A stretch of DNA of 64,000 nucleotides. It comes from Bacilli bacterium. Lineage in GTDB: Bacteria > Bacillota_I > Bacilli_A > ML615J-28 > CAG-698. This document shows, in pieces, positions 31,759-44,094 of this stretch. The position numbers and the translations under genes are program-made. The stretch spans positions 1,516 to 65,515 of the forward strand of contig JAZNJG010000142.1 of the NCBI GenBank assembly GCA_045577945.1. Reading direction: 5' to 3'. The notes below the pieces were generated by a model that saw only the letters and a program-made list of their open reading frames with translations, was not told the DNA's origin and did no database searches. Within the stretch, counting starts at the first letter, position 1. Every line of letters begins with the position of its first letter.

Positions 31759-32007
31759 TTGAAAGGTAATAACATGTATATTAAATATGTATTTGGTATC
31801 TTAATTATTATATTATTAATTTTTATGTTAATTAGATTTTGGGTTAATATATTTAATTCTGAAAAGAAAACTCATATTAGCGATAGAATTAATCATATAG
31901 ATAAGATTAATAAATTAGCTAAGAAAGTTAGAGCTAGTAAGAAAAAATATAAAAACTATAAGTCAAGTAAAGATGTAATTGATGAATTTATGAAAGGTGA
32001 AAAATAA
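31759..32007 (+). CDS. small membrane protein
   Basis: hydrophobic helix 'VFGILIIILLIFMLI'. Confidence 0.4.
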   Translation: MKGNNMYIKYVFGILIIILLIFMLIRFWVNIFNSEKKTHISDRINHIDKINKLAKKVRASKKKYKNYKSSKDVIDEFMKGEK

Positions 32008-33182
32008 TGTTTGAAGATTTTTTTTATGACGAAGATGGTAATATTCGTATGAAACGTGTTATCGGTGTAATAGTAACATTAGCATTTATTATTGCCTCGT
32101 TCCTATTATTTGATGGGGTTTGGGAGAATAATAAGGCATCAAACTATCAAATTAAACAGGCTGCAGTTTCTGGTAATTTAAGTGTTAAAAATGATGCTGG
32201 TGTATATGTTAAGTGGTTTGGTGATATTACTACATATCGAAAAGTATCTAGTTTAGATTTTGAAGAAGAAAATATTAAAGTTAGATTTAATGATGGTTCT
32301 GAAGCAGGTATCAAAGGTAAAGTAACATTTAGATTACCTACAAATCCTGATTTACAGAAAAAACTACATATTGAATATCATGATTTTGATAACGTTGTTA
32401 AAAATTTAATTAAACCTAATGTAGAAGAATCATTAAAACAAGCAGCAACATTAATGACAGCTGAAGAATCCTATTCTTCTGGAAGAACCAATTTTATTAG
32501 TGCTGCCGAACAACAAGCTAAATTAGGTATTTTTAAAACAATTTCTAAAGAATCAGATTCTGAAGATGGAACAGTAAAGAGAACAATTCGTGTAGCTTTT
32601 GATAGTAACGGAAATCCAATTATTCAAAAACCTACAATGTTAAAAGAATATGGTATTGAAATCACACAATTTACAGTGTCTGATTTTGAATTTGATGATG
32701 TCGTTAAAAATTTAATTGCTGAAAAGAAGAAGAAAGAACAAGAACAAGTAGTATCACGTTCTGAAGCTGAAAAAGCAAAACAAGAAGCAATTACAGAGAA
32801 AGAAAGAGGTGAAGCTCGTATTGCTAAACAAAGAGCAGATTCTGAAGTAATTAAAACAGCTGCTGTTATTGAAGCTCAAAAGAAAGCAGAGGTTGCGAAG
32901 CTTGAAGCTGAGCAAGCAAAATATGAAGCACAAAAAATTAGAGAACAAGGTGCTGCAGAAGCGTATGCTAATGAATTAAAAGTAAAAGCTGGTTTAACAC
33001 CATTAGAAAAAGCTCAAATTGAAAAAGAAACAAAAATCGGTATTGCACAAGCACTATCCAAAGTACAATTCCCATCAAGTATGGTTATTTCAGGTGGATC
33101 TAATAGCGGTACAAATCCATTTGATGCTGTTGGATTACAATCATTATATGAATTATCTGAAAAAATGTCTATAAAGAAATAG
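32007..33182 (+). CDS. SPFH/band-7 (prohibitin/HflK-like) membrane protein
   Basis: N-terminal TM segment; long Ala/Glu/Lys coiled-coil region typical of SPFH proteins. Confidence 0.5.
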   Translation: MFEDFFYDEDGNIRMKRVIGVIVTLAFIIASFLLFDGVWENNKASNYQIKQAAVSGNLSVKNDAGVYVKWFGDITTYRKVSSLDFEEENIKVRFNDGSEAGIKGKVTFRLPTNPDLQKKLHIEYHDFDNVVKNLIKPNVEESLKQAATLMTAEESYSSGRTNFISAAEQQAKLGIFKTISKESDSEDGTVKRTIRVAFDSNGNPIIQKPTMLKEYGIEITQFTVSDFEFDDVVKNLIAEKKKKEQEQVVSRSEAEKAKQEAITEKERGEARIAKQRADSEVIKTAAVIEAQKKAEVAKLEAEQAKYEAQKIREQGAAEAYANELKVKAGLTPLEKAQIEKETKIGIAQALSKVQFPSSMVISGGSNSGTNPFDAVGLQSLYELSEKMSIKK

Positions 33183-33198
33183 ATTATAGAGGTATATA

Positions 33199-33786
33199 AT
33201 GAGCAAATATATTATATATAGTTTTTATTGTATGGCATTAGTGATTGCAAATGTAATTGCAAATAGAATTGGACAAATAGGTTGGTTTTCTGTTGCAGGT
33301 AACCCACTAGCATACGTAACCTGTTTTTTATTCTGTGATATTATGAATGAAAAATATGGTGAAGTAGAAGCCAGAAAATTAGTTAATACAGGGTTTTTAG
33401 TTTCGATTGGGTATATGGTTTTATTATACTCAACATATCTAATTCCAGCAGGTGATTTACAGTACGATGAATCATTTAAGTTAGTTTTTAATAATAGCTA
33501 TAGAGCGGTTTTAGCGTCACTATGTGCATATCTAATTTCTAATCATATTGATGTTAAAATATTTAGTTATCTCAGACGAAAGAAGAAAGGTAAAGTAACT
33601 AGAAAAGTTATATCAACAATTATAAGTCAATTTATTGATAGCTCAATATTTGCGTTAGTTGCTTTTTTAGGTGTATTTGATCTAACATCTTTAGTATCAA
33701 TTATTATAAGCGAGTATTTAATTAAAACAATTATTAACTTATCTGAAACTCCAATTTATTGTCTATTAACAAGAAAGGGAAAATAA
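33199..33786 (+). CDS. YhhQ/QueT-family (DUF165) 7-deazaguanine precursor transporter
   Basis: 'ALVIANVIANRIGQIGWFSVAGNPLAYVTCFLFCDIMNEKYGEVEARKLVNTGF' matches the YhhQ pattern SN....LP..G...G...FP..F...D...E..G...AR; six predicted TM helices. Confidence 0.55.
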   Translation: MSKYIIYSFYCMALVIANVIANRIGQIGWFSVAGNPLAYVTCFLFCDIMNEKYGEVEARKLVNTGFLVSIGYMVLLYSTYLIPAGDLQYDESFKLVFNNSYRAVLASLCAYLISNHIDVKIFSYLRRKKKGKVTRKVISTIISQFIDSSIFALVAFLGVFDLTSLVSIIISEYLIKTIINLSETPIYCLLTRKGK

Positions 33787-34079: not shown

Positions 34080-34108
34080 GGGAGGAAATAATTTCCTCCT
34101 TTTTTATT
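34080..34108 (+). terminator. terminator; same hairpin sequence as 44059
   Basis: 'ggaggaaataatttcctcc' + 'ttttttatttttttat'. Confidence 0.6.
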
Positions 34109-34126
34109 TTTTTATTGATTTTTTAG

Positions 34127-34185: not shown

Positions 34186-34341
34186 ATGAAAGATATATTA
34201 AAAGGTATTGTATATGGATTTTGTGGTAGTGTTGCTGCTTACTTTGTATTCATGTTTTTTATCAACACTTTATTATGGTGGTGTACAGATGAATCAGAAA
34301 TGTTTTATCAACCTGTTTGGAATATAACAAAATTAATGTAG
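34186..34341 (+). CDS. small membrane protein (51 aa)
   Basis: ATG at 34186 after promoter TTGATT-16-TATAAT and RBS 'aaaggaga'; hydrophobic. Confidence 0.3.
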   Translation: MKDILKGIVYGFCGSVAAYFVFMFFINTLLWWCTDESEMFYQPVWNITKLM

Positions 34342-34469
34342 ATAAAACTATAATATTCACGGCACCCAAGGCCCGCAGTCACACTCGAACGACCATCATG
34401 ACCAGAACGAGCCCGCGAACCACAATGAGAACTATCGTTCCAACCACCACCAGAAAGCAAAACACCCAT
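34308..34469 (-). CDS. mini-ORF consisting of a decayed DGR variable-repeat copy (VR2)
   Basis: 54 codons, 'MGVLLSGGGWNDSSHCGSRARSGHDGRSSVTAGLGC...', in the same reading frame as the TR/VR1 codons. Confidence 0.3.
   Translation of the reverse strand: MGVLLSGGGWNDSSHCGSRARSGHDGRSSVTAGLGCREYYSFIYINFVIFQTG
34361..34466 (-). repeat. DGR variable-repeat-like copy 2 (degenerate)
   Basis: about 85 % identical to the TR; most differences are at TR adenines, a few are not. Confidence 0.6.
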
Positions 34470-34496: not shown

Positions 34497-34522
34497 AAAC
34501 AGCTCGTATCAACGAGCTGTTT
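34497..34522 (-). terminator. hairpin terminator downstream of the DGR target gene
   Basis: perfect 10-bp stem 'aaacagctcg/cgagctgttt', followed on the minus strand by 'cttttttat'. Confidence 0.5.
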
Positions 34523-34590
34523 AGGTTTATTTGAGACTGAGAGCTTTTAACTACTACGTAGTTGGGTCCCTGGACCTGAGGTCCCTCTCG

Positions 34591-35673
34591 CTACGCTTGG
34601 TTTATATTTGGACTACGCCCGCGGCACCCATCGCCCGCATTCACATGCGAACGACCAACAGCACCAGTACGAGCCCGCGAACCACAATCAGAACCATTGT
34701 CCCAATCACCACCAGCACGCAAAACATAACAAGCTCCGTAATATGCACCTTTTGATGTATCTTGTAATTGAGTCCATCCTGAGCCACCAGAAGCTGAAGG
34801 AGATTCTAGCCATTGCCAGAGATAGCCACACATTTCTTCACACCCGTAATTAGAAATCATTCTTCTACTCGCTGTATCTACGTGGCCACCAGAAGTTTTT
34901 GGATTTGGAGCAGCAGCACCATAAATTGAAGTTTTTTGATTAGATCCTTCAGCAGCGCATTGAAATTCTGTATCTCCTAGAGGTTGTTTCTTGACATACA
35001 TTAAATCTTCATAATGAAGAGGTGGGTTTCTTGAATCAGTTACTGTACCACCATAAACAGACATTGTATTGGTTCCAGTTCCAGATTGTAAATATATATC
35101 ACACCAGAAATTTAAGGGCTCAATATAAACCATACCTTCAGGCGAGCAGTGAGGGCGTCTATTCAAACACCAAACTGAAGCCGGTAAAATTTCTCCTGCA
35201 ATATAACCTGATAATGGGTGATCTGTAATTGTACCTACATTTACACATAATGTGTGAAATCCACCAATTTTTCTAGTATTATTAGCTGTGAATCCTGTCG
35301 GGTATGTTGAGTTTTTAGAACACTTAAATCCTATTTGACCATTATTATTATATATGTAAATATAATAATTTGCACCTGCATCTAATGTAGTCCCATTATC
35401 TAGTATATCTAATACATTTAATGTAGTATCTTCGGGTATTGAATAGAACATATCATTACCATCAACATTTAATCTAATAAATGTCCCAGCAGCTATTGTT
35501 AAAGTTTGTCTATCACTAGCTGACATAAAAGGTGTTGAGTATGCAGAAAAATCGACTTTAAAGTCTGCACTCGCTTTATTTTTAAGTGCATCAATGTCAG
35601 TATTCATTGTTGAGAGGGTATCTTTAAGAGTATCAACACGTTCAACAGGTATTTTACTTGTATTAACAACCAT
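34591..35673 (-). CDS. DGR target protein (putative receptor-binding/tail-fibre-like, C-type-lectin-type variable C-terminus)
   Basis: C-terminal 37 codons are the variable repeat; C-terminus '...AGGDWDNGSDCGSRARTGAVGRSHVNAGDGCRGRSPNINQA*' vs TR-encoded 'AGGNWNNSSNCGSRARNGNDGRSNVNANNGCRGR'. Confidence 0.8.
   Translation of the reverse strand: MVVNTSKIPVERVDTLKDTLSTMNTDIDALKNKASADFKVDFSAYSTPFMSASDRQTLTIAAGTFIRLNVDGNDMFYSIPEDTTLNVLDILDNGTTLDAGANYYIYIYNNNGQIGFKCSKNSTYPTGFTANNTRKIGGFHTLCVNVGTITDHPLSGYIAGEILPASVWCLNRRPHCSPEGMVYIEPLNFWCDIYLQSGTGTNTMSVYGGTVTDSRNPPLHYEDLMYVKKQPLGDTEFQCAAEGSNQKTSIYGAAAPNPKTSGGHVDTASRRMISNYGCEEMCGYLWQWLESPSASGGSGWTQLQDTSKGAYYGACYVLRAGGDWDNGSDCGSRARTGAVGRSHVNAGDGCRGRSPNINQA
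34615..34726 (-). repeat. DGR variable repeat (VR1)
   Basis: 112 nt; the 14 mismatches to the TR are all at TR adenines. Confidence 0.85.
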
Positions 35674-35683
35674 TATTTTTTTC

Positions 35684-36019
35684 CTATTTAATTAAAGTTT
35701 CAATTTCTTCTTTAGTAAACCCTATACGAAATATATATGCATTAGAGTCTTCAACGAATTCGTATTGATGACGAATAGGGCTTGTTAGTTTATTACCATC
35801 TTTATCTTCTTCCTCTATAATAATTTTATGAGTTTCATCTTCAACACCATCACCAACTAATTCTGTTTCTTGCCAAATAAAACGATTATCATAAGCTTCT
35901 TTTAATTTTTGTTTTCCATACATACCAAATAATTCAATACAGTTTAAGTAATCTTCTTTGGTATTAAAAAATTTAGGTAAACCTCTCATTAAACATTTCC
36001 TTTCTAATATTTTATACAT
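35684..36019 (-). CDS. hypothetical acidic protein (111 aa) upstream of the DGR target
   Basis: ORF; does not look like a basic Avd. Confidence 0.4.
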   Translation of the reverse strand: MYKILERKCLMRGLPKFFNTKEDYLNCIELFGMYGKQKLKEAYDNRFIWQETELVGDGVEDETHKIIIEEEDKDGNKLTSPIRHQYEFVEDSNAYIFRIGFTKEEIETLIK

Positions 36020-36101: not shown

Positions 36102-36190
36102 CATAGATGTGATTATAAAAATCACAGGTTATAGGTTTACAATACACTGTAAGTTTTGCATAACGACGCATTACATACAAAGCAAAACCT

Positions 36191-36302
36191 TGTTTTGCAT
36201 GCTGGTGGTAATTGGAACAATAGTTCTAATTGTGGTTCACGAGCTCGTAATGGTAATGATGGTCGTTCGAATGTGAATGCGAACAATGGGTGCCGCGGGC
36301 GT
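36191..36302 (+). repeat. DGR template repeat (TR)
   Basis: AAY-codon-rich 112-nt segment 147 nt upstream of the RT; invariant template for VR1 and VR2. Confidence 0.85.
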
Positions 36303-36448
36303 GATATATTAACACCAATTTAGTTAATAGCCGAATCTATATTCCTTGGTATTAATTTACCAAAATAACACTAAGAAAGACTATCGAAGCTAGTAATAAT
36401 ATATGAACGTTTTGATAGTCTTAACCTTTATATAAAGAGAAGCATACT

Positions 36449-38119
36449 ATGAAGAGATATGGTAATTTTTGGGATAATATAGTTACAAAATCAAATATTT
36501 TATTATCATATTTAAATGCTAAAGTTGGTAAGAGAAAGAAAAGAAATGTAAGACGCTTTTATAAAAACTGGCGTGAAAATCTTGATAAAATACAACATTC
36601 TCTCAAATTTTTTACATTTAAAACTGGTCAATATAATAGCAAAGAATTATACGAACCAAAGAAAAGAGTTATATACATATTACCATTTAATCCAGATCGA
36701 ATCGTTCAACACGCAGTTATGAATGAAATTAAAAAGATCTGGAATAAAATTTTTATTAGCGATAGTTATGCTTGTCGTGACAAAAAAGGAATGCACCGAG
36801 GATCAAATAAAGTTAGAGGGTGGGTAAAGATTAATAAGTATTGTCTTAAAATGGATGTAAGAAAATTTTATCTTAATATTAATCATGAAATATTAAAGAC
36901 AATTATAAGAAAAAAGTTAAAAGATATATACCTTTTAAAAGTTTTTGATAATATCATTGATAGTTTTCCAGGTGAGATAAATGTTCCTATAGGAAATTTT
37001 ACATCTCAATGGTTTGGTAATCTATATATGAATGAACTAGATTATTATGTAAAACATACACTTCATTGTAAATATTATATTCGATATTGTGATGATTTTT
37101 GTTTATTTAGTAATAATAAACAACAATTACATGATTGGTCGGCTTTGATAAAGCAATTTTTAAAAGATAAATTACAATTAGAGTTAAGTAAAAATGATGT
37201 TTTTCCTGTAACAAGAGGTGTTGATTTTTTAGGTTATCGCCATTTTCCAAATAAAGTTTTAGTTCGAAAAAGAACTATTAAAAAATTTAAAAAAATTTTT
37301 AGAAAAATTGCAAAGAAAATTCAAGAAGATAACTACAATAATTACACATACATTCTTGGTTTTTTGAATTCATCTAAAGGTTGGTTAGATCATGCTAATA
37401 CTCATCGATTTAAAGAAAGGTGGAAAATTGAAGAACTAATTAAATTATTAAGAGTATGTGAATATAGTAAATTCAAAAAGCTATTCATATATGTTGCGAA
37501 TATACCTGCAAAAACATATATAATTAATGATGAGAGAATAAATGAGATTATTCAAGAAGCAAGAAGTATTAAAATTAACAAAACTCAGACAATGAAGAAA
37601 TCAATAAAAATAGATATTAGTAAATTAAAAAATTTTCAATACACACCATATGCTGAACCAGGTGATTGGATGAATTTGAGTGAACAATTTAAAATAAATA
37701 CTTTTAACGATATGGAATGTGAAAATTTATTTTTAAAAGAATTGGATATGAATAGTGAATTAAAGAAAGAAATCGTGTCATTATCAGATTTAATAGGTGC
37801 TAGTAAAATAAAATACCCAACTATTAAATTAGAAGAAATAATAGATATTGATGTACTAATACATAGTATGTATATAGCACCAAGTATTAAAAGTGAGGGT
37901 AAAGATTATGCACGATTTATAATTACAAAATTAGATAGTGATGAAAAGCTAACATTTACAACTGAAAGTGTATCTGTTGTTGATAGTGTAAAAAGAGTAT
38001 TAGCGAAATTTGATTCATTAAATATAAGTGAAGAATCTAGACCACTTATCAAATCTAGATTTGTATATGAATTTTCAAAAAAATCAGGTAGACGGTATAT
38101 AAAAATGATTTCTTTATGA
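36449..38119 (+). CDS. DGR reverse transcriptase with a ~200-aa C-terminal extension
   Basis: 'VPIGNFTSQWFGN' (DGR-type IGxxxSQ motif); 'YIRYCDDFCLF' (YxDD); 'VDFLGYRHF'. Confidence 0.85.
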   Translation: MKRYGNFWDNIVTKSNILLSYLNAKVGKRKKRNVRRFYKNWRENLDKIQHSLKFFTFKTGQYNSKELYEPKKRVIYILPFNPDRIVQHAVMNEIKKIWNKIFISDSYACRDKKGMHRGSNKVRGWVKINKYCLKMDVRKFYLNINHEILKTIIRKKLKDIYLLKVFDNIIDSFPGEINVPIGNFTSQWFGNLYMNELDYYVKHTLHCKYYIRYCDDFCLFSNNKQQLHDWSALIKQFLKDKLQLELSKNDVFPVTRGVDFLGYRHFPNKVLVRKRTIKKFKKIFRKIAKKIQEDNYNNYTYILGFLNSSKGWLDHANTHRFKERWKIEELIKLLRVCEYSKFKKLFIYVANIPAKTYIINDERINEIIQEARSIKINKTQTMKKSIKIDISKLKNFQYTPYAEPGDWMNLSEQFKINTFNDMECENLFLKELDMNSELKKEIVSLSDLIGASKIKYPTIKLEEIIDIDVLIHSMYIAPSIKSEGKDYARFIITKLDSDEKLTFTTESVSVVDSVKRVLAKFDSLNISEESRPLIKSRFVYEFSKKSGRRYIKMISL

Positions 38120-38210: not shown

Positions 38211-38297
38211 GGAGGCGTGCTGTAAGTGGTAGCCAGATCAGACTTAAAATCTGAGGGAGATTTCTCCGTGTGGGTTCAAGTCCCTCCGCCTCTACCA
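38211..38297 (+). tRNA. tRNA-Leu(TAA), long variable arm
   Basis: cloverleaf; anticodon loop 'cuUAAaa'; 3' CCA encoded. Confidence 0.75.
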
Positions 38298-38323
38298 TTT
38301 TAATAAATAATTACATAACAAAC

Positions 38324-38399
38324 GCCGACATAGCTCAACTGGTAGAGCAACTCACTTGTAATGAGAAGGTTGGGAGTTCAAGTCTCTCTGTCGGCACCA
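38324..38399 (+). tRNA. tRNA-Thr(TGT)
   Basis: acceptor gccgaca/tgtcggc; anticodon loop 'cuUGUaa'. Confidence 0.65.
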
Positions 38400-38412
38400 T
38401 TATTTTTTTTTT

Positions 38413-38487
38413 GGTCCCATCGTCTAATGGTTAGGACATCACCCTTTCACGGTGGTAATATGGGTTCGAATCCCGTTGGGATCACCA
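38413..38487 (+). tRNA. tRNA-Glu(TTC)
   Basis: 'cccuuucacgg' anticodon arm as in bacterial tRNA-Glu; T-loop 'ggttcgaatcc'. Confidence 0.75.
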
Positions 38488-38495
38488 ATTTTTAT

Positions 38496-38570
38496 TCCGA
38501 CTTAGCTCAGCGGTAGAGCAATCGGCTGTTAACCGATCGGTCATCTGTTCGAATCAGATAGTCGGAGCCA
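38496..38570 (+). tRNA. tRNA-Asn(GTT)
   Basis: anticodon arm 'atcgg cuGUUaa ccgat'; acceptor tccgact/agtcgga. Confidence 0.75.
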
Positions 38571-38579
38571 ATTTTTATA

Positions 38580-38650
38580 GGGATGTAGCTCAGCTGGTAA
38601 GAGTAGTAGTCTGATAAACTATAGGTTGTTGGTTTAAGTTTAGTACGAGG
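38580..38650 (+). pseudogene. tRNA-Ile(GAT)-like 5' portion without a matching 3' acceptor strand
   Basis: good acceptor-5', D arm and anticodon arm 'gtagt cuGAUaa actat', but no T arm or acceptor complement follows. Confidence 0.35.
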
Positions 38651-38674
38651 AGAGCTATTTCTTATATATTATAT

Positions 38675-38760
38675 GGGTGGGTTGCATAGAGGCTTATTGC
38701 AGCGGACTGTAAATTCGCCGTCTTCGGACATCGGTGGTTCAAATCCATCCCCACCCACCA
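38675..38760 (+). tRNA. tRNA-Tyr(GTA), long variable arm
   Basis: acceptor gggtggg/cccaccc; anticodon loop 'cuGUAaa'; T-loop 'ggttcaaatcc'. Confidence 0.75.
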
Positions 38761-39147
38761 TTTTTCCGAATAAAAACGGAGATTTATACTATATAATATT
38801 TACAGTACACTGTTATATTATTAAAGTATAAACGTAGGGAGTTCTTCAATCGGTAGCTCCAAAGACAACGAAAATGTTTAATTAAGAACCGATTTTTATT
38901 TTATGAGAGGTAGAAGAAATAGATGTTTTTCTTCTATAAATTATTAAATATAGTAAGAATCTTCTAAAGTTTTAATTTTAATTTAGGTAAGATTAAAATT
39001 AATTTGATAGAGACTTAATTCTTATGGAACGCTCTATTACATAAAAGGTTATAAGATAGTTTACCTGAACTTTTAACATATATGTAGGAGTTTAATAATT
39101 TATATAACCTACTAACTATTCTTGTAGGAAACCTTTCACCATTTATA

Positions 39148-39552
39148 ATGAAAGGTAAAAAAAATATGGAATTAAAAAAGAGATATGGTATATTTCTCAT
39201 TAAAGAGAAAGTATTATATGGATATGTTGAAAATTCTTTTTCAATGAGCTGGGAACCAAATTGTGTAAGAGCTTGGAAATTAGAAGACTTACAATGGATT
39301 TGGAATAATGGCGTTAGACCTTATGGTTTAGATACTAAATATACAAAAGGAATTAAAGCCAAATATCCAAAAGCTTTTATCGTTCGTATTACTGATAATT
39401 TTCCCAAACAATTTCAAAATAAATTAAGAAAGAAAATAAAAATTCATTGGAAAGAAAGACAAGATATATTAAATAGAACAGAAGAAGAACAAAAGAAAAA
39501 ATATATTAGCAAAAAATATCACGCTAGAAATGTTCGGTTTAGTGAGGTGTGA
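39148..39552 (+). CDS. hypothetical basic protein (134 aa)
   Basis: ORF inside the tRNA region. Confidence 0.4.
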   Translation: MKGKKNMELKKRYGIFLIKEKVLYGYVENSFSMSWEPNCVRAWKLEDLQWIWNNGVRPYGLDTKYTKGIKAKYPKAFIVRITDNFPKQFQNKLRKKIKIHWKERQDILNRTEEEQKKKYISKKYHARNVRFSEV

Positions 39553-39992
39553 GTTTTACAGATAATATATTGGGATTATTTAGCTAATTTTCTTCAATAT
39601 ATTATTTGAGAATAACAAAGTAAGAAGTGATAAGCTTATGGAGTTATTTTATACGATGGGAAAGACCATTGACATATTGGAATCAGACAATAAGGTTACA
39701 CCAAGTATTATACAGACCTTATAAAGTGTGTTTGCACTGATCTCGTGCGGTGTTAAAATAAACAGGAGTTGGCTCTTTTAGATATGAGTAACACAGTGAT
39801 ATCTAATATAGTGAAAAATAAAATTAGACATTCTTATCAAATTGGAAATTATATTTATTTTTCACTGAATTTTTTTTATACCACGATCGTTCATTGGTTA
39901 GAGTGTGGTCTTATATACCTAGTATCGTAGTTTGAGTCTCACCATTCCAGCCATTTTATAATTATTAAAATAATTTCTAATTTATAAAACAA

Positions 39993-40066
39993 TAGAGTGT
40001 CGTCTAATGGTAGGACATCGCACTTTGACTGCGACAATAGTGGTTCGAATCCATTCACTCTAACCA
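39993..40066 (+). tRNA. tRNA-Gln(TTG)
   Basis: acceptor tagagtg/cactcta; anticodon arm 'tcgca cuUUGac tgcga'. Confidence 0.7.
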
Positions 40067-40100
40067 ATTCTAATTTACTCTTATCTTCATAAAATTTCTC

Positions 40101-40129
40101 TTGATTATATTAAAAATATATTATATAAT
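40101..40129 (+). promoter_or_regulatory. early sigma70-like promoter
   Basis: TTGATT-17-TATAAT, shared motif 'ttgattatattaaaaat.tattatata'. Confidence 0.6.
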
Positions 40130-40154
40130 ATTAATATACTTAAAGGAAAATAAA

Positions 40155-40523
40155 ATGAAAAGTTTTAAAGATTTTTTAACAGAAGCAAAAGAAAATATTA
40201 GTCATAAACTCGTTGATATGAAAATTATTAATGAGATGGCTACTCTTGCTGCTAAAAGCGATGGAGTTGGATTTATAGCTCGTATATATTCTAATGATCA
40301 CGAGCCCGCTCATATGCATATTTTAGATTATAATAATAAAAAATTAGCTAAAGTTTTATTATCGGGAAATACTCCATCGAAAATTAATGATTTTCAATTC
40401 TTAGATGGTGAATTGGATAGAGATATGTTAAAGAAATTATTAAAATGGGCTAAAGGAAATAATGAAGAAGGTTTTAATAATTGGATATATAGCTTCTCGG
40501 TATGGAAGTCAGAACATAAATAA
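40155..40523 (+). CDS. internal-protein-like small protein with a CTS-like N-terminus 'MKSFKDFLTEAKE'
   Basis: N-terminus resembles the T4 IPI/II/III capsid-targeting sequence 'MKTYQEFIAEA'; true start is the internal Met after RBS 'aaaggaaaataaaatg', not the track start at 40101. Confidence 0.5.
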   Translation: MKSFKDFLTEAKENISHKLVDMKIINEMATLAAKSDGVGFIARIYSNDHEPAHMHILDYNNKKLAKVLLSGNTPSKINDFQFLDGELDRDMLKKLLKWAKGNNEEGFNNWIYSFSVWKSEHK

Positions 40524-40535
40524 AAGGAAAATAAA

Positions 40536-40715
40536 ATGAAAAAGAAGAAACGAAAACGATTTATAAATGGTGATGAAAGAAATTTAAGATTTAATCTCTT
40601 TCATAATGGATTATTTAAACAAAAGATTATACCAAATAAAAAGAAGAAAGTTAAAAAGTTTGACTATAAAAAAGAAATCAGTTCTTATCTAAACATTTAT
40701 TCATTGAGTTTTTAG
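40536..40715 (+). CDS. small highly basic protein (59 aa)
   Basis: 'MKKKKRKRFINGDERNLRF...'; RBS 'aaaaggaaaataaaatg'. Confidence 0.3.
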   Translation: MKKKKRKRFINGDERNLRFNLFHNGLFKQKIIPNKKKKVKKFDYKKEISSYLNIYSLSF

Positions 40716-40776
40716 ACAAGAACTGATTTTTATAATAAATAATTTATATAAATGCATTTATAAAGGAAAACCAAAT

Positions 40777-41136
40777 ATGAAAACATTTAGGGAATTTTTA
40801 TTAGAAGCTAAAATAAATGAAGATACTATGACTCCAGACGAAATTAAAAACTTCATCGATGATCATAAAATTCGAAAAGATATAGGAACTGGAGTATTTA
40901 AATATACTAAAGTAGAGGAATCTGTGTCATTAGATGAAGAAAAAATATCAGACATTAGAACCTTAAAGAAAGGTCAAAAATTTAAATTCAAAAATTCTAA
41001 AGACAATAATACTTATATTATTACTCGTAAATTCAATTCTAATTCATTATCATATGATAATGTAAATACTAAAGAACATTATATATGGGATTGGAGTCAA
41101 GTCCATGAACGTGATGTTATAGTTGAATCAAAATAA
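40777..41136 (+). CDS. internal-protein-like small protein with CTS-like N-terminus 'MKTFREFLLEAKINE'
   Basis: same N-terminal family as 40155, 60427 and 63247. Confidence 0.5.
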   Translation: MKTFREFLLEAKINEDTMTPDEIKNFIDDHKIRKDIGTGVFKYTKVEESVSLDEEKISDIRTLKKGQKFKFKNSKDNNTYIITRKFNSNSLSYDNVNTKEHYIWDWSQVHERDVIVESK

Positions 41137-41463
41137 TTAACAGAAGCTAGCTTAAATCTTGATGATAGTTTTGAATTTGAAAGAACCAAATTTAATATTA
41201 AATAGTGGGATAATGGTGAAATTCAAATTACAAGTTCACATCCATATGATTTAGCTGAATATCATTGAGCTAAAAGTAGAAACGATGGCAAAACATTTGA
41301 TATTATATTAGATAATAAAAGAGTTAAAACTGTTGTTACTAGATCATGGGAAAGAATTGATGATGAAGATTTGGGTGATTATGCAACATTTTCATGGTCT
41401 GAAATCACAAAAGTTCTAAAAGATATGGATAAAAGAGTAAAACCTCATATTGACAGAACTTAA
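41137..41463 (+). pseudogene. stop-interrupted continuation of the 40777 reading frame
   Basis: same frame stays coding-like ('...ITKVLKDMDKRVKPHIDRT') but holds in-frame TAA, TAG and TGA. Confidence 0.3.
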
Positions 41464-41523
41464 TTGTTTAAAATGTTTTCAAAATAAACTCTTATAAATA
41501 ATAATATAAGAGTTTATTTTTTA

Positions 41524-41601
41524 CTCGTAGTTGCATAGTCTGGCTAATGCGCTTGGTTTGGGTCCAAGAGATCGGGAGTTCGAATCTCTCCTACGAGACC
41601 A
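41524..41601 (+). tRNA. tRNA-Pro(TGG)
   Basis: acceptor ctcgtag/ctacgag; anticodon arm 'cttgg uuUGGgu ccaag'. Confidence 0.7.
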
Positions 41602-41607
41602 TTTTAT

Positions 41608-41683
<76 letters not shown>

Positions 41684-41690
41684 TTTTAAA

Positions 41691-41765
41691 GGGAATGTAG
41701 CTCAGAGGAAGAGCGCTACACTGTCACTGTAGAGGTCGAGATATCGTAATTCTTCATTCCCGCCA
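41691..41765 (+). tRNA. tRNA-Asp(GTC)
   Basis: acceptor gggaatg/cattccc; anticodon arm 'ctaca cuGUCac tgtag'; atypical T-loop. Confidence 0.6.
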
Positions 41766-41774
41766 TATATTATT

Positions 41775-41848
41775 AGAGATTTAGTTTAGTGGTAAAACAT
41801 CGGTCTCCAAAACCGAAGTCAGCTGTTCAAATCAGTTAATCTCTGCCA
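41775..41848 (+). tRNA. tRNA-Trp(CCA)
   Basis: acceptor agagatt/aatctct; anticodon arm 'tcggt cuCCAaa accga'. Confidence 0.7.
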
Positions 41849-41855
41849 TTTATAT

Positions 41856-41929
41856 GGAGAGTTGACAGATCGGTTATGTGGAAGACTGCAAATCTTTTTA
41901 GAGGTGTTCGACTCACCTACTCTCCTCCA
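41856..41929 (+). tRNA. tRNA-Cys(GCA)
   Basis: acceptor ggagagt/actctcc; anticodon loop 'cuGCAaa'. Confidence 0.6.
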
Positions 41930-44058: not shown

Positions 44059-44094
44059 AAAGGAGGAAATAATTTCCTCCTTTTTTATTATTTT
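44059..44094. terminator. bidirectional terminator; same hairpin sequence as 34080..34108
   Basis: 'aggaggaaataatttcctcc' followed by 'ttttttattattttttat'. Confidence 0.6.

Follow-up and report, generated by a model that had tools for sequence, protein, structure and literature searches.

A gene-less, VR-type copy of the template repeat beside an inverted diversity-generating retroelement in a large phage

We found that a 64-kb stretch of phage DNA (the window) holds, besides the template repeat (TR) and the working variable repeat (VR1) of its single diversity-generating retroelement (DGR), a genuine third member of the repeat family. This copy, VR2 (34360..34464, minus strand), is a VR-type, adenine-mutagenised copy of 105 nt of the TR (36191..36295) and belongs to no gene. 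The explanation that we find best, and put forward tentatively, is that VR2 is an orphan: a non-coding copy that stayed behind in the ancestral TR slot after the cassette was rearranged and was later rewritten with VR-type sequence. An initial annotation made from the sequence alone had placed a third copy, in the orientation of VR1, at 34361..34466; the copy and its orientation are confirmed here, with slightly different ends.

The retroelement and its third repeat

The window is very AT-rich (~26% GC) and encodes RIIA, GroEL, NrdD, an NAD-dependent ligase, tail proteins and ten tRNAs, a gene content from which we conclude that it represents a large lytic-type phage. Its DGR comprises a reverse transcriptase (RT) of the DGR clade, an adenine-biased TR/VR1 pair and an Mtd-like target with a C-terminal VR. 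The target gene (34591..35673, minus strand) encodes a tail protein of 360 aa (Pfam mtd_2nd, 3.5e-23; PHROG tail protein; 27% identity to BPP-1 Mtd), and VR1 lies at its 3′ end (34615..34726, minus strand), differing from the TR by 15 mismatches, 15/15 of them at adenines. The TR (36191..36302, plus strand) is inverted relative to both VR1 and VR2. It is followed on the same strand by a 146-nt spacer (36303..36448), which shares the motifs GCYGAATCT..CCTTG..CAAAATA with the spacers of related cassettes, and by the RT gene (36449..38119, 556 aa). The RT matches RVT_1, resembles annotated RTs of crAss-like phages and carries the motif IGNFTSQ, which we take to be a mark of DGR RTs.

Upstream of the target, and co-inherited with it, is an acidic ORF (35684..35989, minus strand) that matches no Pfam or PHROG family and is not recognisable as Avd; avd is absent from 26% of DGRs (PMC5758913). 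The ORF list gives this product as 111 aa (35684..36019); the relatives L167-L169, in which 101 aa are conserved, and the position of a Shine-Dalgarno (SD) motif at the 35989 start point to a product of 101 aa. Between VR1 and VR2 lies a bidirectional, intrinsic-terminator-like hairpin with an 11-bp stem (34497..34522), at which the target transcript would end 32 nt before VR2. From the other side, a convergent gene for a predicted membrane protein of 51 aa (34186..34341, plus strand), preceded by a strong SD motif, ends 18 nt past the VR2 tract, and its transcript would be expected to cross VR2 in antisense up to the shared terminator.

A search of the window with a pattern made of the non-adenine positions of the TR returned exactly three copies (TR, VR1 and VR2), with a chance expectation of 0. 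VR2 aligns to the TR without gaps over its 105 nt and shows 17 mismatches. The 25 TR adenines account for 16 of these and the 80 non-adenine positions for one, a G→T change (Fisher p = 1e-11). The alignment of TR, VR1 and VR2 thus upholds the earlier observation that the differences fall mostly at TR adenines (16/17), and reduces the "few" changes reported at other positions to a single one inside the tract. As a reference for the signature of a VR we used 82 non-redundant working TR/VR pairs from related cassettes. The fraction of TR adenines substituted was 0.64 in VR2 against a median of 0.64 in these pairs (quartiles 0.57-0.70), and the mismatch rate at non-adenine positions was 1/80 = 0.0125 against a median of 0.012. 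A→G, A→T and A→C changes made up 50, 19 and 31% of the adenine substitutions in VR2, and 56, 22 and 22% in the related pairs. The internal signature of VR2 is indistinguishable from that of a working VR, and the description of the copy as decayed does not fit its rates, both of which match the clade medians. VR2 is likewise no adenine-rich master copy in the manner of a TR, with 9 of 25 adenines left.

As direct repeats, VR1 and VR2 are 85% identical and share an unbroken run of 20 nt; the differences between them show no adenine bias. Of the 10 sites substituted in both, 6 carry the same change, where ~4.4 would be expected. Since the shared substitutions are close to chance, the two repeats look like independent outputs of one template, and their patterns are compatible with independent writing. 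We considered whether VR2 is a recent duplicate of the present VR1 and rejected this, given the near-chance number of shared substitutions and flanks that lack homology.

Boundaries and flanks of VR2

TR, VR1 and VR2 begin at an identical first base (TGTTTTGC), upstream of which no similarity was found in any pair of the three copies. The boundary precedes a GGNGGN..TGG motif by 13 nt here and by 7-18 nt in 44 of 45 relatives; on this comparison the 5′ boundary is a conserved property of the clade.

At the other end, the identity of VR2 to the TR stops within the GC-rich element, after GGGTGCCG. The next 7 nt (34353..34359, minus strand) read TGAATAT in VR2 and CGGGCGT in TR and VR1, and VR2 is thus without a complete GC-rich element/IMH. 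Of the shared end gccgcgggcgt, which had been described as lost from the copy, GCCG is therefore kept and only the last 7 nt are absent. TGAATAT is possibly the decayed distal half of the GC-rich 3′ element. Its five differences from CGGGCGT are all GC→AT transitions, with 0 transversions, and only 0.7% of the 7-mers in the window are free of transversions against CGGGCGT (P about 0.007), a weak test partly chosen post hoc. G/C was lost at 5/6 positions in this stretch compared with 1/46 in the VR2 tract (p = 1.4e-5, for a test picked post hoc). Farther out, an anchored, ungapped comparison of the 3′ flank of VR2 with that of the TR found 15 positions that match and 10 that differ by a transition over 37 nt (P about 0.02), again in a weak test partly chosen post hoc; the same flank did not match that of VR1 (P 0.16-0.63). 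Unanchored alignment of the VR2 flank to the whole TR spacer, and local alignment of the VR2 flanks to the VR1 flanks, were both at chance level. We also discarded a simple tandem duplication that took in both VR and flank, the downstream flanks being unlike.

It has been reported that homing in BPP-1 requires a (GC)14 element, a 21-bp IMH and a downstream hairpin, that sequence upstream of the VR is dispensable, and that a weak hairpin-independent pathway exists (PMC3240598). The boundary of information transfer in that system maps inside the GC-rich element, analogous to the end of the VR2 tract (PMC3240598). Here, VR1 is followed by a stretch of 44 nt (AGTCCAAATATAAACCAAGCGTAGCGA..GGACCTCAGGTCC; 34571..34614, minus strand) that includes a small hairpin, GGACC-TCA-GGTCC, and is ~90% conserved in the relative L169, which makes it a candidate IMH-like element. 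VR2 lacks this conserved post-VR stretch; past it, no GC-rich hairpin is predicted and neither a spacer nor an RT has left a remnant.

Two further observations concern the TR. A perfect 7-bp hairpin, GCAAAAC-CTT-GTTTTGC (36182..36198, plus strand), spans the point at which the TR starts, and the first 7 nt of the repeat form its 3′ arm; the hairpin could be an end mark for reverse transcription or a scar of rearrangement. At 36297 the TR reads GCCGCGGGCGT, and two fragments 99% identical to the window, L167 (689-869) and L168 (545-725), read GCCGCAGGCGT. The TRs of other relatives have A where their VRs carry G in the GC-rich element, and thus the TR of the window took the VR-type base. The position may belong to the IMH/IMH* distinction.

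The TR slot and a proposed rearrangement of the cassette

We gathered 166 related loci via the target and the RT and detected 128 TR/VR pairs in them, of which 86 are non-redundant. In 128/128 pairs the TR follows the VR on its downstream side, in direct orientation and at a start-to-start spacing of 143-946 nt (median 199), and none of these pairs shows an inverted TR or a second VR. In the window, VR2 follows VR1 in direct orientation at 262 nt and therefore sits in the canonical TR slot; a random copy would land in the 143-946 nt range with a chance of ~0.6% (804/128,000 positions). VR2 has the position of a TR of this clade but not the spacer and RT that go with it, and the working TR-RT is inverted, 1.46 kb off on the other side of the target. 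The canonical target-VR-TR-RT cassettes (L010-L166 and L171, from crAss-like and other gut or environmental phages) have RTs of the same clade (45-56% identity), TRs of the same length (about 112-121 nt) and the same 5′ boundary. In these cassettes the repeat in the slot is an adenine-rich TR followed by a spacer and the RT, whereas the slot of the window holds an adenine-depleted copy, past which the sequence is unrelated. Terminators in the spacer between VR and TR were considered as a further clade feature and rejected; only 7 of 86 relatives carry one, and they are therefore not counted as evidence.

The layout of the window differs from that of its relatives in several ways that point to a rearrangement in this lineage. 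The inverted TR-RT recurs in the metagenomic fragments L167 and L168, both 99% identical. A colinear order (target-VR-TR-RT) is seen in L171 (target 59%, RT 51%), which is the closest relative to have the two genes on a single contig. The minus-strand segment from VR2 to the 101-aa ORF forms a 1.7-kb island within a long plus-strand block. In L169, a Logan contig (target 74%), the 101-aa ORF and the target are colinear with the genes upstream of them, and there is no divergent TR-RT. Window 34571..36005, which takes in the 101-aa ORF, the target, the VR and the 44-nt flank, corresponds to L169:2043-3474 at 77% nucleotide identity, and the upstream genes of L169 (a T4-type neck protein and a 324-aa ORF) have no homologue in the window. 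The module is thus common to both despite an unrelated context, and the unit therefore behaves as an exchangeable module. Furthermore, the RT carries a C-terminal extension of 220 aa (residues 337-556, window 37457..38119). Among ~1900 listed matches, RT homologues (typically 330-350 aa) cover residues 1-336 only, the exceptions being the 99%-identical P0001 and P0121.

We propose that the ancestral cassette was colinear (target-VR-spacer-TR-RT) and was rearranged, which turned the TR-RT away from the target. One copy would have stayed behind in the former TR slot, lost its spacer and RT and then been overwritten with VR-type sequence, either by rare cDNA homing or by DNA gene conversion from an earlier variant of VR1. 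By either route, VR2 would have been last written from the TR, directly or indirectly, through adenine-mutagenic reverse transcription. VR1, as a direct repeat 262 nt away, could have served as the conversion donor, and active recombination is known for this phage type. Under recurrent rewriting the VR2 tract would stay fresh and in step with the other repeats; the 3′ flank, being unprotected, would decay under AT pressure. Rearrangement and rewriting together would account for where VR2 lies, for its having the 5′ boundary of the other copies, for the absence of a gene body, for the VR-type signature and for the pattern in the flank. TRs are normally protected from homing, and turning an old TR into a VR-type copy therefore needs rare homing or conversion from VR1; a TR turned recipient is an unusual step, which counts against this explanation. 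For a fresh tract to stand beside a strongly diverged flank, moreover, rewriting must have been repeated or the breakpoint must coincide exactly with the end of the tract.

We infer the order of events and the route by which VR2 was rewritten, because no close relative spanning the VR2 site was retrieved. Exact look-ups of the RT and of the 111-aa, 51-aa and 95-aa proteins returned nothing; the TR/VR pattern with N at adenines had no match in viral contigs, nor had the conserved post-VR 23-mer in viral or genome contigs. RT searches of viral and metagenome contigs for relatives covering VR2 returned only relatives of <=54%. The 99%-identical relatives stop short of VR1 and VR2: L167 and L168 break off within the target, and L170, also 99% identical, breaks off just ahead of the 51-aa gene. 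The L169 contig ends 47 nt past its own terminator. Such contig breaks in or near the DGR suggest assembly fragmentation around repeats or strain heterogeneity.

Other possible origins of VR2 and known systems

The first alternative, which we consider unlikely, is that two targets once stood in tandem and that the body of the second was deleted, leaving its VR downstream of the first. Multi-target DGRs, including those of phages, are well known (PMC5758913; PMC10743442), VR2 is of VR type and in frame, and its distal GC element may be a decayed IMH. The deletion, however, would have had to stop within 32 nt of the 5′ boundary of the VR and spare the terminator of VR1, which lies 32 nt upstream of VR2. 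VR1 and VR2 are also without homology upstream of their common boundary, no target-like remnant is found within the window, a second VR occurs in none of ~130 related cassettes, and the flank of VR2 is nearer to that of the TR than to that of VR1. The initial annotation had read the copy as a relic of a former or duplicated target and proposed a search for second targets in related genomes. The part of this reading that stands is a VR-type copy without a gene body or complete 3′ elements, and a relic is conceivable; with VR2 in the TR slot of the relatives, and none turning up with a second VR, it is not the best fit.

Ranked after this, and again unlikely, is a single ectopic event in which a free, mutagenised TR cDNA was inserted non-homologously ~150 nt downstream of VR1. 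This would agree well with a fresh tract between unrelated flanks and with homology limited to the stretch that a cDNA or an information-transfer tract would span (PMC3240598; PMC12875486), from the clade-conserved TR boundary at the 5′ end to a 3′ end inside the GC element. In addition, cDNA synthesis in BPP-1 is target-independent (PMC5703328). Against it, insertion leaves unexplained why VR2 lies in the canonical TR slot and in direct orientation near VR1 (~0.6% by chance), and it makes coincidences of both the weak likeness to the TR flank and the transition-only 7-mer. Non-homologous integration of DGR cDNA is also not described in the literature examined.

A present non-coding function seems improbable, be it as a silent reservoir for recombination with VR1 or, with VR2 transcribed in antisense within the 3′ UTR of the 51-aa gene, as a regulator of TR RNA or target mRNA. 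VR2 is as well kept as working VRs, its 85% identity and 20-nt identical run with VR1 would suit recombination, and the plus-strand transcript of the 51-aa gene should cross it before the shared terminator. Nevertheless, such a copy is found in no other related cassette, and an exchange with VR2 would leave the target with a foreign C-terminus and without its post-VR elements. We likewise think it hardly likely that VR2 is still rewritten by the DGR despite having no gene body, distal GC element, conserved post-VR sequence or hairpin. If it were, homing in this clade would need far less target information than in BPP-1, and VR2 would be a silent, ever-refreshed cassette that could be swapped into VR1 by recombination or modulate TR RNA in antisense.

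VR2 lies, in the frame of VR1, within a minus-strand ORF of 53 aa plus stop (34308..34469), as had been noted earlier. We judge this ORF to be incidental, probably a by-product of a stop-proof TR. It is established for DGRs that TR adenines sit in AAY codons and cannot become stops (PMC5758913), and the frame is open because any copy of such a TR stays open without selection. No SD motif precedes the ORF, where the sequence reads TTTTTAAAATTAT, compared with an AGGA/GGAG-type motif 5-12 nt before the start codon in all 11 neighbouring genes checked. Its ATG lies 27 nt past the terminator hairpin with no promoter-like site found between the two, an in-frame TAA stands three codons upstream, its final 34 nt overlap the convergent 51-aa gene, and it has no Pfam match. 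The ORF thus has neither the translation nor the transcription signals of a small gene, VR2 does not lie at the 3′ end of a protein-coding target gene as a VR does, and no target-like sequence occurs elsewhere in the window. That it is nonetheless a real gene for a minimal DGR-diversified peptide, the other reading offered at the outset, is very improbable: an ATG directly at the start of the repeat, the open VR1-register frame and a hydrophobic tail would speak for it, but the signals are missing, the tail is read-through into the convergent gene, the peptide covers only the last third of the C-type-lectin-like fold, and an open frame is to be expected of every copy of this TR. The ORF should stay unannotated as a gene.

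Compared with the BPP-1 DGR (mtd-VR-avd-TR-brt), the system described here is alike in its Mtd-like tail-protein target (mtd_2nd, 27% identity), in TR and VR of about 110-130 nt with adenine-specific differences and a GC-rich 3′ element, and in TR-derived information that ends inside this element (PMC3240598). It is unlike BPP-1 in the inversion of the TR-RT relative to the target, in having no recognisable Avd, in the 220-aa RT extension and in the third, gene-less VR-type copy without IMH or hairpin. Multi-target phage DGRs, such as those of the nd4/nd12 tentaclin phages (PMC10743442) and cases with three targets (PMC5758913), resemble it in that one TR serves two VRs that are unlike each other and show coincident substitutions only occasionally. 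In those systems, however, every VR is part of a complete target gene and has 3′ elements of its own, whereas VR2 has no gene body, ribosome-binding site or post-VR element. Literature searches on orphan, remnant or intergenic VRs found no description of such a copy. The kind of system is known; the literature searched does not describe a fresh VR that belongs to no gene and occupies the TR slot of an inverted cassette.

DGR surveys count VRs within genes, and orphan copies such as VR2 are open to mis-annotation as tiny variable proteins or second targets. A gene-less yet fresh VR means that adenine-mutagenised information was written to, or kept at, a site without the accepted requirements of a target. 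If VR2 does occupy the former TR slot, it would be a natural record of a cassette rearrangement and of a template turned recipient, and would bear on how TR/VR directionality is enforced and on the evolution of DGR cassettes. Its value would rise sharply if read-level data showed ongoing diversification.

Several features of the wider neighbourhood were also recorded. Just upstream of the DGR region (32007..33786) are genes for an SPFH/Band-7 protein (391 aa) and a homologue of Vut_1-family transporters (195 aa), both of which are kept in L170. An Rfam scan returned nothing relevant. A cluster of ten tRNA genes (Leu, Thr, Glu, Asn, Tyr, Gln, Pro, Met, Trp and Cys; 38211..41929) lies directly 3′ of the RT gene. 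A 33-nt terminator-like palindrome (GGAGGAAATAATTTCCTCC followed by a T-run) occurs twice at 97% identity (34081..34113 and 44062..44094), and its two copies flank a block of ~10 kb that contains the 51-aa gene, VR2, the target, the TR-RT and the tRNA cluster.
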